A stretch of DNA of 64,000 nucleotides from Hellea sp. (GCA_020627655.1 JAHDGM010000005.1:2977-66976), one strand, 5' to 3'. Positions 44,155 to 47,717 are shown, counted from the first letter of the stretch. Notes: a model not told the origin generated them from the letters alone. Numbers and translations: made by a program.

Positions 44155-44182
44155 GCTTGATAGATAACCGTTACTATCAAGC
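44155..44182 (-). terminator. near-perfect 28-nt palindrome abutting the stop of the 132-aa gene (possible terminator or operator upstream of lepA)
   Basis: GCTTGATAG-ataaccgtta-CTATCAAGC with 9-bp arms (the inner TAAC/GTTA is also complementary). On the minus strand it is followed only by the weakly U-rich CUUUACUCUU. Confidence 0.4.
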
Positions 44183-44580
44183 TACCCGCCAACGAGCGGT
44201 GTCAGCTTTATAAAGCTGACGGCCATGTTCGGTTTAAGTTCTATAATTTCATCCAAATTTTCGATTTGACGGTTATCGATCAGCATAAAAAAACCATTTC
44301 CTTGAAAGGCTTTTAAGGCGGTTGCAATCTGTTTAGCGGCATTGACCTTACGCCGTTTTTTAAAACGGTACCCATTCAATGTTTCCTCCGTCTCTGTTGG
44401 TTGAACGAGGCCGTTGAAGCGCTTTTCAACTTTGCGGTTATATGCATCGACTTCTTGAATGACCCGTTCTCGGATAATGTCTTCTGCTGAAACATTTGGG
44501 CTTTCGAAATTCAGGTTAAATTCCTGTTTAACTTCACCGCCAACTGTTTCGTCTCGGACAATAAGTTGTAAGATTCCCAT
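44182..44580 (-). CDS. small hypothetical protein ending ...LTPLVGG-stop; MoaD/ThiS/ubiquitin-like (beta-grasp) candidate
   Basis: 132 aa. The ATG lies 2 nt after the TAA of the upstream gene, with GAGG 5 nt upstream. The C-terminal GG is directly followed by TAG. The fold is inferred only. Confidence 0.6.
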   Translation of the reverse strand: MGILQLIVRDETVGGEVKQEFNLNFESPNVSAEDIIRERVIQEVDAYNRKVEKRFNGLVQPTETEETLNGYRFKKRRKVNAAKQIATALKAFQGNGFFMLIDNRQIENLDEIIELKPNMAVSFIKLTPLVGG

Positions 44581-44582
44581 GT

Positions 44583-47123
44583 TTACCTCAGCTGACTCAG
44601 GATGGTTTTATCAGTAATTTTATTGTCCTCTGCTAACATGAAGGCTTTACTTAGAACAATGGACAGACCTCTATCGCCCTCAAAGGGTAGGTATAAAGCT
44701 TCGACAGTTTTATCTTTACCGCGTCCAGGCACTATACAAAGATACCGGTCATCAGGTTGAATCAGTATATTGCCGCTCCCTATATGAATTTTGTAACTAT
44801 GTTTCATACCTTGGATGTGTAAGAACTTGCCCTCTATGTGGGCTTTATCACGTATTTTCAGCCTCGGTACAAGACGCTCCAATACGGCTTTACGTGTCTT
44901 AGCCGTTTCACTCAGGTCGCCAAAAGAATATGATCGCCAATATTCATGTGTGCGTGGTGCGCCGCCGCGGTCCATCCATGTTGGGTCATTGCCAATACTG
45001 GCGACGCCGACAAACAAATCCGTGTCGCGTAAAATTTCTGACAACACAATTGGCGGAATATTGATCAGCTCAACAACGTCATCATATTCATTAATAAAAC
45101 GAACTTGATCCGTGGCGACATAATTCCATATGCCTGCTTCATTAAAATGATCTGCATCTTCTATAATTTCATCGATCCAAAATTCGGCATTAAGATTATA
45201 GGCCGGTATAGCTTTGCTGGCGATTGTGTTGTCACGACCATCATCATAAGCGCCCATTAGTGAATATTGCCATCCACGTATGGCGGCTAAAGAATTAAAC
45301 TGATGTTGTTTAATAATATGGGCGGCCATTCGGTTGGAATATGTTCCGGTGTTTATTTCGGCATCAGTCAAAATGTAAATTTCTCTGTATGCCTGTTTGA
45401 AAGGCTGTCTTATTTCGAGGGTTTCTAATCGATCTCTCCATGTCATGATTTCGTCCGTCTTGGATTGGATCGGATGCCACAGGTGGATGGTGTCAATTTG
45501 GTCTTTAATTAGTTTTCCGCCTGAATCTTGCCAATTGCCTTTTATATATAAAGCATTGATGGTTTTGCCTTTAATAGTGAGGGCCCAAATAAGTTTTCGA
45601 GCGATAACAGAGACTAGTCCATGATCTAGATAATATTTTGAAAAATCTTCCGGTGTCCAAGATATGTCTTGAGTGTAAAGTCTATCAATCCGGTCTCGCT
45701 GGGTTGATAAGGCTTTTTTAATTTCTTTGACTTGGGCTCTTACGTCAGCAAGTTTGGATTTAAGAGCCGCGTTGTCTTTGATGAAGGCAGGGGTTGTTTT
45801 CTGTGGCGAGCCATCAGGTTTAAGCCAGGTTTGAGATATGTTTTGGACGCCTTCTGCTGAAATTCGCAGTGTATAATCTTTAAGAGAAATGTCTTTACGA
45901 CCTGAGCCAAGTCCAAAATCGGGAGCCGCCATCTCTTCAATCTTTGTTGCTGGTAATCCTTGTTTCTGAGCTTGTTCTTCTATGTGTTTTTGTATGAGTT
46001 TTTGCGTGTTGTTTTGTTTAACTCGCAATTTCAATCGAGAGAGATGTGCTACGCCTCCGAGGCCTTTAGAATTGGCCAGAGTATAAATACAGGCATTTCC
46101 AAGTGCGGCAGCACCCGGTCCGATACCAGGTAATCGGTTAAAACATTTTTCGGCAAGTTTTGAGACCGCAGCGAGAGTCTTTTCATCATGAAATCTGGAT
46201 AAGCCCCAAACTAGGCCTTTGAGCAAGGTTTGCATGATATTGCTTAGCGCGCCAGCATTGTAATGATTAACAGTGTTGTTATCTTGAAAGGCATTTGCGC
46301 TTGCGGCCGCTGTCAGCCAATCTTGCATTTGGCTTTTAAACTTTGATAGTTCCATTGTTTCTAATTGGGTGTCAAAGTTTTTGAGATATGTTTTAGATGG
46401 CTTAGATCCGTTGGAAGTAGCCGCTATATGGAATAATCTATACCATGATTGTCTTAATTCATCAGGCATATCATCCAGGTCTGCCTTCATTTTCTGCCCT
46501 ATTCCCTCATTACTCAGAGGGTAAGGTGCAGCTGCCAAGTCTTCAGTTGAAATCAGTTTAACCAGTTTTGCATGGGCTTTTTGCAAATCGGAGCCGTAAT
46601 AATTACGTTTGTCAAAGGCTTTCCATTTAGAAACTTTTATCAACGCTTCTTGTTGCATATCTGTGAGTTCATTGTTCTTAAGGCATTTTTCAAGTTGTGA
46701 AACAGTGAGGCCGATTGGCCAACGTGGAAAATTAATGTCTTTGTGGTTTTTATAATTGTGCAACAGGGTAATTATGTTGTCTGGCGTAAAATTAATTTTA
46801 CGCCGCAAAATCATACTTAAAGGATCAACCGTTCTGGTGACATTAGTCCAAGTGTAGTTCTTGTGACCCTTACTTGTCGTTAATGGGGGATTGGCAGAAA
46901 ACGCTAAAACAAAATCTGCTTTTTCATCTGGTGATAGGGCTGCAATTTTTTGAAATGAAGGCATTTCACGATAATCGCTTTGGGCTGGATATCCAGAAAG
47001 TTTTTTCAGATCAACTGCAAACTCTTTTAATAATCCGGTATAATTGCCAGACTTCAGAGATGTAGATTTTGCCGTTTCTTTATGAGGCTTAGGCGTAGAT
47101 TTTCTTTTAAAAAAATTGAACAT
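44583..47123 (-). CDS. DUF4132-family large protein (MolR/YehI-like C-terminal region)
   Basis: About 846 aa (ATG 47123; the listed ORF starts at GTG 47129). The C-terminal half carries blocks I associate with DUF4132 proteins: LWHP, QPFKQAYREIY, IKQHQF..LAAIRGW, TDQVRF, SEILRDTDLFVGVASIGNDPTW, YKIHIGSGNILIQPDDRYLCIVP, LPFEGD. The family call is from memory. Confidence 0.65.
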   Translation of the reverse strand: MFNFFKRKSTPKPHKETAKSTSLKSGNYTGLLKEFAVDLKKLSGYPAQSDYREMPSFQKIAALSPDEKADFVLAFSANPPLTTSKGHKNYTWTNVTRTVDPLSMILRRKINFTPDNIITLLHNYKNHKDINFPRWPIGLTVSQLEKCLKNNELTDMQQEALIKVSKWKAFDKRNYYGSDLQKAHAKLVKLISTEDLAAAPYPLSNEGIGQKMKADLDDMPDELRQSWYRLFHIAATSNGSKPSKTYLKNFDTQLETMELSKFKSQMQDWLTAAASANAFQDNNTVNHYNAGALSNIMQTLLKGLVWGLSRFHDEKTLAAVSKLAEKCFNRLPGIGPGAAALGNACIYTLANSKGLGGVAHLSRLKLRVKQNNTQKLIQKHIEEQAQKQGLPATKIEEMAAPDFGLGSGRKDISLKDYTLRISAEGVQNISQTWLKPDGSPQKTTPAFIKDNAALKSKLADVRAQVKEIKKALSTQRDRIDRLYTQDISWTPEDFSKYYLDHGLVSVIARKLIWALTIKGKTINALYIKGNWQDSGGKLIKDQIDTIHLWHPIQSKTDEIMTWRDRLETLEIRQPFKQAYREIYILTDAEINTGTYSNRMAAHIIKQHQFNSLAAIRGWQYSLMGAYDDGRDNTIASKAIPAYNLNAEFWIDEIIEDADHFNEAGIWNYVATDQVRFINEYDDVVELINIPPIVLSEILRDTDLFVGVASIGNDPTWMDRGGAPRTHEYWRSYSFGDLSETAKTRKAVLERLVPRLKIRDKAHIEGKFLHIQGMKHSYKIHIGSGNILIQPDDRYLCIVPGRGKDKTVEALYLPFEGDRGLSIVLSKAFMLAEDNKITDKTILSQLR

Positions 47124-47135
47124 ATACACTTTCGG

Positions 47136-47717
47136 CTATTCACTGCCCCAGACAGGTGGCGGTATGTCGATGGGTTTTGTGAGGTCAAACTCGGCGCGGA
47201 AATCGCGATTTGGGCGTGAGAGCGCGTAAGTAAAGGATGTTCCGGGGTTAATCGAAATTTTCCATGTATTTTCAACGGATGCGGTGAGGCCTTCTTCGCG
47301 GAACAGGCTTTTTGAAAAGTCATCCACTGGAAAAGCCTGAGATTTGGCGGTTCCAAAATCAGCGGTCAGCCCGCCATACATGGTAACATCATCCGGCGTG
47401 CCATCTTCATGTCTGTGATCATGTTTTAGCTCAAGCCCGTTATGTAGATGGGATATGACCCAGGTACGGGAACGGTTTTCGCCAACATGGAGCGGTATTT
47501 TTATTTCCGTATCGCTGCAATCGCGGACATGCATGATCAGGGTTTCCTTGACCCAGTCCGCATCTTGAGGATCTTCGGATATAACCTTGCCGGCAAAAGC
47601 CTTGCCGCACAGGGATGAGAGATTATTCATAAACTCTAATTGAAGGTCTGCTTGTTGCGGGACGCAGGCGCCCAATAGACCGAAAGATATTGTGAGACTT
47701 ATATAGCGCATAATCAC
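47136..47717 (-). CDS. hypothetical lipoprotein with His-rich core motif
   Basis: 193 aa with lipobox FGLLGAC and the block ELKHDHRHEDGTPDDVTMYGG. Ends 6 nt before the listed GTG start (47129) of the DUF4132 gene, or 12 nt before ATG 47123. Confidence 0.6.
   Translation of the reverse strand: MIMRYISLTISFGLLGACVPQQADLQLEFMNNLSSLCGKAFAGKVISEDPQDADWVKETLIMHVRDCSDTEIKIPLHVGENRSRTWVISHLHNGLELKHDHRHEDGTPDDVTMYGGLTADFGTAKSQAFPVDDFSKSLFREEGLTASVENTWKISINPGTSFTYALSRPNRDFRAEFDLTKPIDIPPPVWGSE

Follow-up and report, generated by a model that had tools for sequence, protein, structure and literature searches.

Urm1-Uba4 in eukaryotes, SAMP-UbaA in archaea and TtuB-TtuC in Thermus are dual-function systems that rely on an activating enzyme (E1) only: this E1 is of the MoeB type and sometimes fused to a rhodanese, and there is no conjugating enzyme (E2). 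Here, we analysed a stretch of 64,000 nucleotides from Hellea sp. (GCA_020627655.1 JAHDGM010000005.1:2977-66976, hereafter the window), in which a gene for a 132-aa protein with a free C-terminal Gly-Gly (GG) lies next to the gene for a large DUF4132-DUF7737 protein. The best explanation, which we hold with moderate confidence, is that the small protein represents a new beta-grasp family, ubiquitin-like and sulfur-carrier-like, which is the dedicated partner of the DUF4132-DUF7737 protein and works in an E1-only manner like Urm1, SAMP and TtuB. By analogy, these three systems would then be the closest working analogues of the pair. A first-pass annotation of the window had suggested that the small protein may be a ubiquitin-like protein or carrier that works with the DUF4132 protein, and this suggestion gains support from the predicted fold, the GG end, the gene linkage and the presence of an E1 gene in cis at other loci. 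The pairing was also said to be undescribed, and we found no prior description of it in the searchable literature or in the survey of prokaryotic ubiquitin-like systems by Iyer et al. from 2006, where DUF4132 is not mentioned (PMC1779556). Urm1 is presented as an E1-linked ubiquitin-like and sulfur-carrier system in another article (PMC7911844). The searchable literature held no link of DUF4132 to a ubiquitin-like protein, no more than four papers with passing mentions of DUF4132 itself and no mention of DUF7737 or DUF5724, and a search for MolR/WGR/SWIM returned nothing relevant.

Translation of the minus strand confirmed the 132-aa open reading frame (ORF) read at first pass, the product being MGILQLIVRDETVGGEV...SFIKLTPLVGG, followed by TAG. 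The start codon had been placed 2 nt after the TAA of the 848-aa DUF4132 gene, with GAGG inside the last codons of that gene, and the sequence at the junction, CTGAGGTAA-AC-ATG (CTGAGG-TAA-AC-ATG), agrees with these coordinates. The features of the small gene are the following:

44182-44580, minus strand: gene for the 132-aa protein, predicted to be a beta-grasp (ubiquitin/MoaD-like) protein, with a free C-terminal GG (translation, AlphaFold2 (AF2) and Foldseek).
44182-44208, minus strand: invariant tail codons KLTPLVGG and TAG, with the stop at 44182-44184 (81/81 genomic copies).
44365-44415, minus strand: conserved loop motif NGLVQPTETEETLNGYR within the insert (alignment; low predicted local distance difference test (pLDDT) score; L58, P61, E65 and N69 invariant).
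44578-44589, minus strand: translational-coupling junction, with GAGG at 44586-44589, TAA at 44583-44585, a 2-nt gap and ATG at 44578-44580.

We collected 134 database homologs of about 130 aa, which span Bacteroidota, Alpha- and Gammaproteobacteria, Leptospiraceae and others, and used the 120 among the matches listed for a count of the terminus: a GG end was present in 119/120 and LVGG in 118/120. In the genomic copies, KLTPLVGG stands directly before the stop codon in 81/81 cases, and all three stop codons are used (TAA 40, TGA 22, TAG 18). A profile search over 1.84 billion cluster representatives (50% identity) yielded 2,391 members of the small-protein family at E<=1e-3; the GG end was found in 146 of the 149 distant representatives retrieved from these, and two of the three exceptions look frameshifted. 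Among about 186,000 species representatives (one genome per species), there were 410 small-protein loci, and the mean column identity of the family alignment across phyla was 51%. In the main family, the GG is thus invariant and unextended. At first pass, a coincidental GG terminus had been left as an option, but the counts in genomic copies, listed homologs and distant representatives rule it out. A coincidental terminus, or a spurious ORF, has only the missing database annotation in its favour and is already refuted by the 2,391 clusters, the column identity, the invariant terminus and a confident structure prediction, so that we consider it exceedingly improbable.

The one non-GG homolog listed ends in …GGWYEPDQ and, since the same cluster holds the normal 129-aa form, is a stop-to-Trp read-through variant. 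In the Flavobacteriales lineage concerned (P0027/P0232/P0233 versus P0231; the lineage of L011), …LVGGWYEPDQ occurs on several short contigs beside the GG-stop form, and these variants may be true read-through alleles or have arisen in assembly. A single metagenomic protein (P0297, 969 aa) appeared to fuse DUF4132 to the small protein; it was rejected because its low-complexity, Arg/Gly/Pro-rich middle points to a frameshift or gene-calling artefact, most likely an out-of-frame call across a GC-rich pair in which the DUF4132 gene precedes the small gene.

The gene for the small protein is linked to that of the DUF4132 protein in a near-obligate manner, in both directions of testing. In the forward test, 80 of the 410 loci were examined, which together with the window makes 81. 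A DUF4132-DUF7737 homolog was adjacent on the same strand in 78/81 of these, with an intergenic gap mostly of -14 to about +20 nt, and the small gene stood alone at three loci. For the reverse test, we picked 80 metagenomic loci by motifs of the DUF4132 protein only, and the small gene was found immediately upstream in 69/69 evaluable loci, the contig ending before the position in the other 11. Hence, the linkage to DUF4132 genes put forward at first pass holds across the loci. The small gene precedes the DUF4132 gene in most of them, and the order is reversed in Maricaulaceae, Litorimonas, Algimonas and Arenicella, the clade of the window. The pairing also occurs in a distant Novosphingobium (…LTPLKGG, 4-nt overlap) and in the actinomycete Nonomuraea. 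Since the flanking genes of one locus are unrelated to those of another, even within Pedobacter, and the neighbours seen in the window do not recur (none of LepA, glyoxalase, the 193-aa lipoprotein or the Tad protein was syntenic at any of the 80 loci), the pair behaves as an autonomous module. Such tight coupling of the genes suggests a stoichiometric complex, and a complex of the predicted beta-grasp protein with the DUF4132 protein is, in our judgement, very probable.

Two loci carry further DUF4132 genes. In a Saprospiraceae locus (L012:1677-6934), one small gene is followed by two tandem DUF4132-DUF7737 paralogs (883 and 872 aa), a 225-aa ORF and then an E1. In another (L039:4068-9973), a second, distant DUF4132-like match and two ORFs of about 400 aa lie upstream of the cassette, in which the DUF4132 gene appears split. 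One of these ORFs, which starts '...KKWRLILGGDEADG', presumably resembles the N-terminus of the vWA proteins of MoxR-vWA systems. The arrangement hints that different DUF4132 systems cluster together.

The AF2 model of the small protein (pLDDT 82.5, predicted template modelling (pTM) score 0.73, from a 51-sequence alignment) is confident for the core and has the element order b1(4-11), b2(17-25), a1(32-53), a loop at 54-80, a2(81-93), b3-b4-b5 and a free tail. The top of the Foldseek list against the PDB was almost all beta-grasp: MoaD (6jbz_B, 3rpf_C, 5mpo_A), Urm1 (1wgk), ISG15, SUMO, ubiquitin, superantigen C-domains and Ras-binding domains, with probabilities of up to 0.97 (ISG15 0.97) and a target-normalised TM score of at most 0.57. 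The query-normalised TM score was only about 0.3-0.4 because of the insert. In the viral library BFVD, the named Foldseek matches were ubiquitin or ubiquitin-like. The beta-grasp layout proposed at first pass is therefore matched by the predicted fold, though with all E-values at or above 0.027. At the sequence level, a comparison with E. coli MoaD by hhalign was confined to the last strand and the tail, at a non-significant E of 0.06, and nothing aligned with ubiquitin. For MoaD, the resemblance of the last ~37 residues proposed at first pass consists of this non-significant tail match. Neither Pfam nor NCBIfam nor PADLOC gave a match to the small protein at E<=1, and profile searching of the PDB with it returned nothing relevant. 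In summary, the small protein is, according to the model, beta-grasp at the fold level and lies outside every known sequence family.

A Lys/Arg-rich insert had been described between the two parts of the protein. The composition is as stated, with 12 Lys/Arg in 47 residues (46-92), but the insert is not a low-complexity segment: it contains a motif, GLVQPTxAExTLNGY, that is conserved family-wide and includes the four invariant residues listed above. The model is less certain here (pLDDT of about 60 at residues 51-80), and the conserved loop is probably an interaction loop.

We then considered the genes that accompany the pair. Among 160 loci, only DUF4132 and an E1 recur, and no E2, JAB/deubiquitinase or other family does. 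The E1 neighbour is a ThiF-family protein of about 235 aa (PF00899, E 1.5e-68), which NCBIfam models assign to the MoeB/ThiF clade without any equivalog cut-off being reached. It follows the pair directly in 17/64 evaluable genome loci and 12/71 evaluable metagenome loci (29/135, or about 21%), in several bacterial families, with junction gaps that are nearly always -4 to +4 nt, including 4-nt or 1-nt overlaps. Of the metagenome E1s, 12 are directly downstream and 2 upstream; a larger count, with an E1 cluster in 25/80 metagenome loci, was discarded as inflated by single-linkage contamination with out-of-frame ORFs. The 31 E1s collected keep the GxGGxG, NLhRQ and DCtDn..tR motifs, the crossover-loop Cys is present in 29/31, and none has a CxxC zinc motif. 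The divergence of the E1 correlates with that of the small protein (rho 0.76). In the window itself, an E1 is absent, as the first-pass annotation had stated: tblastn returned no ThiF-family protein at E<=10, and neither did an E1 profile hidden Markov model (HMM) run on all six-frame ORFs. Of the E1 and JAB genes looked for in other instances of the pair, the E1 was thus found, directly after the pair at about a fifth of loci, but a recurrent JAB gene was not.

These E1s bear on the possibility that the small protein acts as a sulfur carrier of the classical MoaD/ThiS/CysO kind, the GG of which would be thiocarboxylated by a housekeeping MoeB, ThiF or MoeZ, while the DUF4132 protein would insert the sulfur into an unknown small molecule or nucleic acid, without any conjugation. 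This partly overlaps with the sulfur-delivery outcome of the explanation that we favour. The E1s are of the MoeB/ThiF class, and one cassette E1 is rhodanese-fused. One locus lies beside a molybdenum cofactor (Moco) cluster (MoeA, MoaC, MobA and an E1-rhodanese), no E2 or deubiquitinase gene recurs, and most loci have no E1, shared housekeeping E1s being the norm for sulfur carriers. The best structural match is also MoaD, with the tail aligning to the MoaD tail at the non-significant E given above. However, a solenoid partner of 850-1,700 aa is unlike any known thiocarboxylate-using enzyme, there is no recurrent cysteine desulfurase or other biosynthetic neighbour, and a rhodanese is fused to only 1 of about 29 in-cassette E1s (L146). 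In addition, the existence of a GG-less sister branch with the same partner, described below, does not sit easily with a role as sulfur donor only. We give this explanation a low probability.

The Moco-linked locus is a single case (L129:781-4772), in which the cluster (MoeA, MoaC, MobA-like, E1-rhodanese) lies directly upstream of the pair of small gene and DUF4132 gene. Its E1-rhodanese was not counted for the cassette, since it is part of the adjacent Moco cluster. The adjacency is curious given the label 'molybdate metabolism regulator' that E. coli proteins MolR/YehH/YehI carry; we take these to be members of the DUF4132 family.

The partner protein consists of an N-terminal solenoid and two C-terminal domains, which Pfam detected with E 5e-38 each (DUF4132, 131.2 bits; DUF7737, 129.6 bits; cut-off 27). 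Its features are the following, where the residue numbers H780 and C796 follow the 846-aa protein:

44583-47129, minus strand: partner gene, 848 aa from GTG (846 aa from ATG 47123), with an N-terminal alpha-solenoid, DUF4132 and DUF7737 (Pfam, AF2).
45270-45812, minus strand: DUF4132 domain (PF13569), residues 440-620 of the 848-aa translation.
44589-44903, minus strand: DUF7737 domain (PF24879), with H780 at 44784-44786 and C796 at 44736-44738.

The start of the partner is ambiguous (47123-47129, minus strand), the mechanical ORF beginning at GTG 47129 (848 aa) and the database protein P0121 at ATG 47123 (846 aa). In the AF2 model (pLDDT 81.2), an alpha-solenoid extends over residues ~30-400 and is followed by alpha/beta regions over DUF4132 and DUF7737. 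A Foldseek search with the full-length model retrieved ARM/HEAT-type repeats only (best E 4.7e-3). The C-terminal half contains many invariant polar residues, and within DUF7737, H780 is invariant and C796 near-invariant.

Residues 723-846 are predicted to form helices, a meander of 4-5 strands, a loop with His...Cys and further helices, an order that recalls the UBC/E2 fold. This would fit a minimal E1-E2-type conjugation, in which DUF7737 would be E2-like, C796 would form the thioester and the solenoid would select cellular or phage targets. Besides the fold order, the conserved H780 and C796 are compatible with such a pathway, loss of C796 goes with absence of the GG end or of the small protein itself, and solenoid scaffolds are typical of substrate-recognition proteins. 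The flanks of the cassette are variable, with an integrase or transposase near some loci. However, an identification of DUF7737 as E2-like found no support in Pfam at E<=10, in a PDB profile search or in hhalign against UBE2D2, and no E2 was among the top 50 Foldseek matches of the full-length partner model. There is also no recurrent deubiquitinase/JAB, no PADLOC match and no phage or viral relative, and most loci lack an E1 of their own, in which they depart from what is usual among known bacterial conjugation operons. Minimal conjugation of this kind is improbable. A role as a defence system was rejected: neither the small protein nor the partner DUF4132 protein nor the 193-aa protein encoded upstream of it matched PADLOC-DB 2.0 at E<=1, no relatives of the pair were found on viral contigs or in phage genomes, and the plasmid matches were only five, on large non-mobilizable megaplasmids. 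A broader form of the idea, that DUF7737 is either an unrecognised E2-like thioester acceptor or a reactive-Cys site like that of a Urm1 target, in a minimal pathway of bacterial ubiquitin-like conjugation that would be new and widespread, seems to us rather unlikely. The small protein, the DUF4132-DUF7737 protein and an E1 of the MoeB type would make up this pathway, the giant solenoid would be both conjugating enzyme and substrate selector, and the GG-less branch would be a non-conjugatable, 'UBL-domain' counterpart.

This GG-less branch is a sister family of at least 91 clusters (Chryseobacterium, Chitinophaga, Fulvivirga, Empedobacter), the tail of which, FIRLTFLAGS(Y/I)W, is equally conserved and has no GG; a divergent copy in Chondrinema ends in ...FIRLTFLAGSIW. 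In 4/4 loci examined, the sister small gene is followed by the gene for a DUF5724-DUF4132-DUF7737 protein of about 1,680 aa, and at these 4 loci an E1 was absent. As this branch keeps the pairing without the GG, binding of the partner needs no free GG, and non-covalent binding is enough there. The deeper invariant is therefore the pair of a small beta-grasp protein and a DUF4132-DUF7737 protein, the free GG and the E1 being features of a single branch. In Chitinophaga (L164:17681-18426 and L165), the gene for a WGR+TPR protein of 1,378 aa lies some 3 kb downstream from the sister pair; WGR is also the domain fused to DUF4132 in MolR-type proteins of E. coli.

The sister branch could indicate that the small protein of the window, too, is a non-covalent subunit or regulator, the tail of which plugs a pocket of the partner, with the GG kept for fit and the adjacent E1 incidental or serving another substrate. 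The equally conserved GG-less tail with the same type of partner, the absence of an E1 from about 79% of loci, including the window, and the tight coupling of the two genes are all in line with this. On the other hand, the E1 abuts the pair in 29 of the 135 evaluable loci, in several bacterial families, which we infer to be far above chance from 2-4 ThiF genes per genome. The stop codon comes right after the GG in every genomic copy and by way of three different stop codons, a hallmark of E1 substrates, and the E1 occurs only with the GG branch (0/4 sister loci, a small sample). We consider a purely non-covalent role unlikely.

C796 differs between the two branches. It is 98% conserved in the partners of GG-type proteins and is Ser or Pro in 4/4 sister partners, while H780, K826, D817, E581 and R580 are kept in both. 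The one partner that resembles the GG branch and lacks C796, from Paraglaciecola (P0228), has no small-protein gene within 8 kb. C796 thus goes together with small proteins of the GG type in two independent comparisons. The covariation of C796 with the GG is suggestive yet confounded, because 46/76 conserved positions also differ between the branches.

Returning to the E1-only, Urm1-like explanation, we propose the following course of events. The small protein and the DUF4132-DUF7737 protein would form a stoichiometric complex. A MoeB/ThiF-class E1, encoded in cis in some genomes and elsewhere in the genome of the window, where it would probably be a housekeeping enzyme, would adenylate the terminal Gly; that the GG end is activated by an E1 is probable, although we say so with less assurance than for the complex. 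The activated C-terminus, an acyl-adenylate and then probably a thiocarboxylate, would be passed on to the partner, into its conserved C-terminal region, and C796 of DUF7737 may receive or react with it there. A Urm1-like hand-off involving C796 is a real but tentative possibility. The outcome could be the delivery of sulfur, or covalent attachment to the partner or to a client of the partner.

Several observations weigh against this explanation. The Foldseek scores of the small protein against the PDB are weak (best E 0.027, none at E<=1e-3), and its sequence does not place it in ThiS, MoaD, ubiquitin or any other Pfam family, PF02597, Urm1 and Prok_Ub included. The C-terminal half of the partner, into which the activated end would be delivered, has no detectable relative in Pfam sub-scans at E<=10 or in a PDB profile search. 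The window and about 79% of the loci have no E1 nearby, and the correlation between E1 and small-protein divergence could reflect shared phylogeny alone. Finally, the sister branch, with its 91 or more clusters, keeps the DUF4132-DUF7737 partner without GG or E1, and the confounding by 46 of the 76 conserved positions applies to C796 as a candidate acceptor.

The surroundings of the pair in the window comprise LepA downstream of the small gene and, upstream of the pair, a 193-aa lipoprotein-like ORF and a Tad-type gene. The 193-aa ORF (47136-47717, minus strand) begins like a lipoprotein (…FGLLGAC…) and matched nothing in Pfam, NCBIfam or PADLOC. A gap of just 6-12 nt separates its stop from the start of the DUF4132 gene, so that co-transcription with the pair is possible. 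None of the 80 other loci has this ORF near the pair. The 64-kb window contains no tRNA genes, no Rfam match above the gathering thresholds was found over positions 1-64000, and promoter and terminator scans gave nothing informative.

The pair provides a first functional clue for DUF4132, a large bacterial family without known function, through the dedicated partner of one of its major branches, a small-protein family that is widespread yet not captured by Pfam, NCBIfam or PADLOC. If the proposed chemistry were confirmed, it would constitute a new E2-less ubiquitin-like or sulfur-carrier system in bacteria. The GG and non-GG branches, with the covarying Cys of the partner, would serve as natural controls in studying the evolution of covalent signalling by ubiquitin-like proteins out of non-covalent beta-grasp pairs.

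Compared with Urm1-Uba4, SAMP-UbaA and TtuB-TtuC, the pair shares a small protein of predicted beta-grasp fold with a free GG, an E1 of the MoeB/ThiF class, the lack of an E2 or ligase (E3), and a mature end that is encoded directly and needs no processing. It differs from them in having no detectable sequence similarity, a conserved insert of about 45 residues and a GG-less sister branch; in addition, the partner is a DUF4132-DUF7737 solenoid and not a tRNA thiolase or the like, and the E1 is in cis at only ~21% of the loci. Like MoaD-MoaE/MoeB and ThiS-ThiG/ThiF, the pair has adjacent and translationally coupled genes and an E1 of the MoeB/ThiF clade, and its best structural matches are MoaD. 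In contrast to these, the partner is unrelated to MoaE, ThiG and CysM, there is no match to Pfam ThiS/MoaD, and the pair lies outside cofactor operons, except for the one case of Moco adjacency.

With Bil, Bub, CBASS Cap2/Cap3 and the 6A-6E operon types of the Iyer et al. survey, the pair has in common a putative prokaryotic ubiquitin-like protein and an E1, encoded in compact cassettes whose flanking genes vary. Unlike those systems, it has no recurrent E2 or JAB and no PADLOC match, and its E1 is a plain MoeB/ThiF protein, without an E1-E2 or JAB-E1 fusion. The partner carries PF13569, as do DUF4132 family proteins in general, but belongs to a subfamily in which DUF4132 and DUF7737 are combined with an N-terminal solenoid (DUF5724 in the sister branch). 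What is new here, relative to the known E1-linked beta-grasp carriers and modifiers, is the sequence family of the small protein, its obligate partner and a natural GG-less counterpart.

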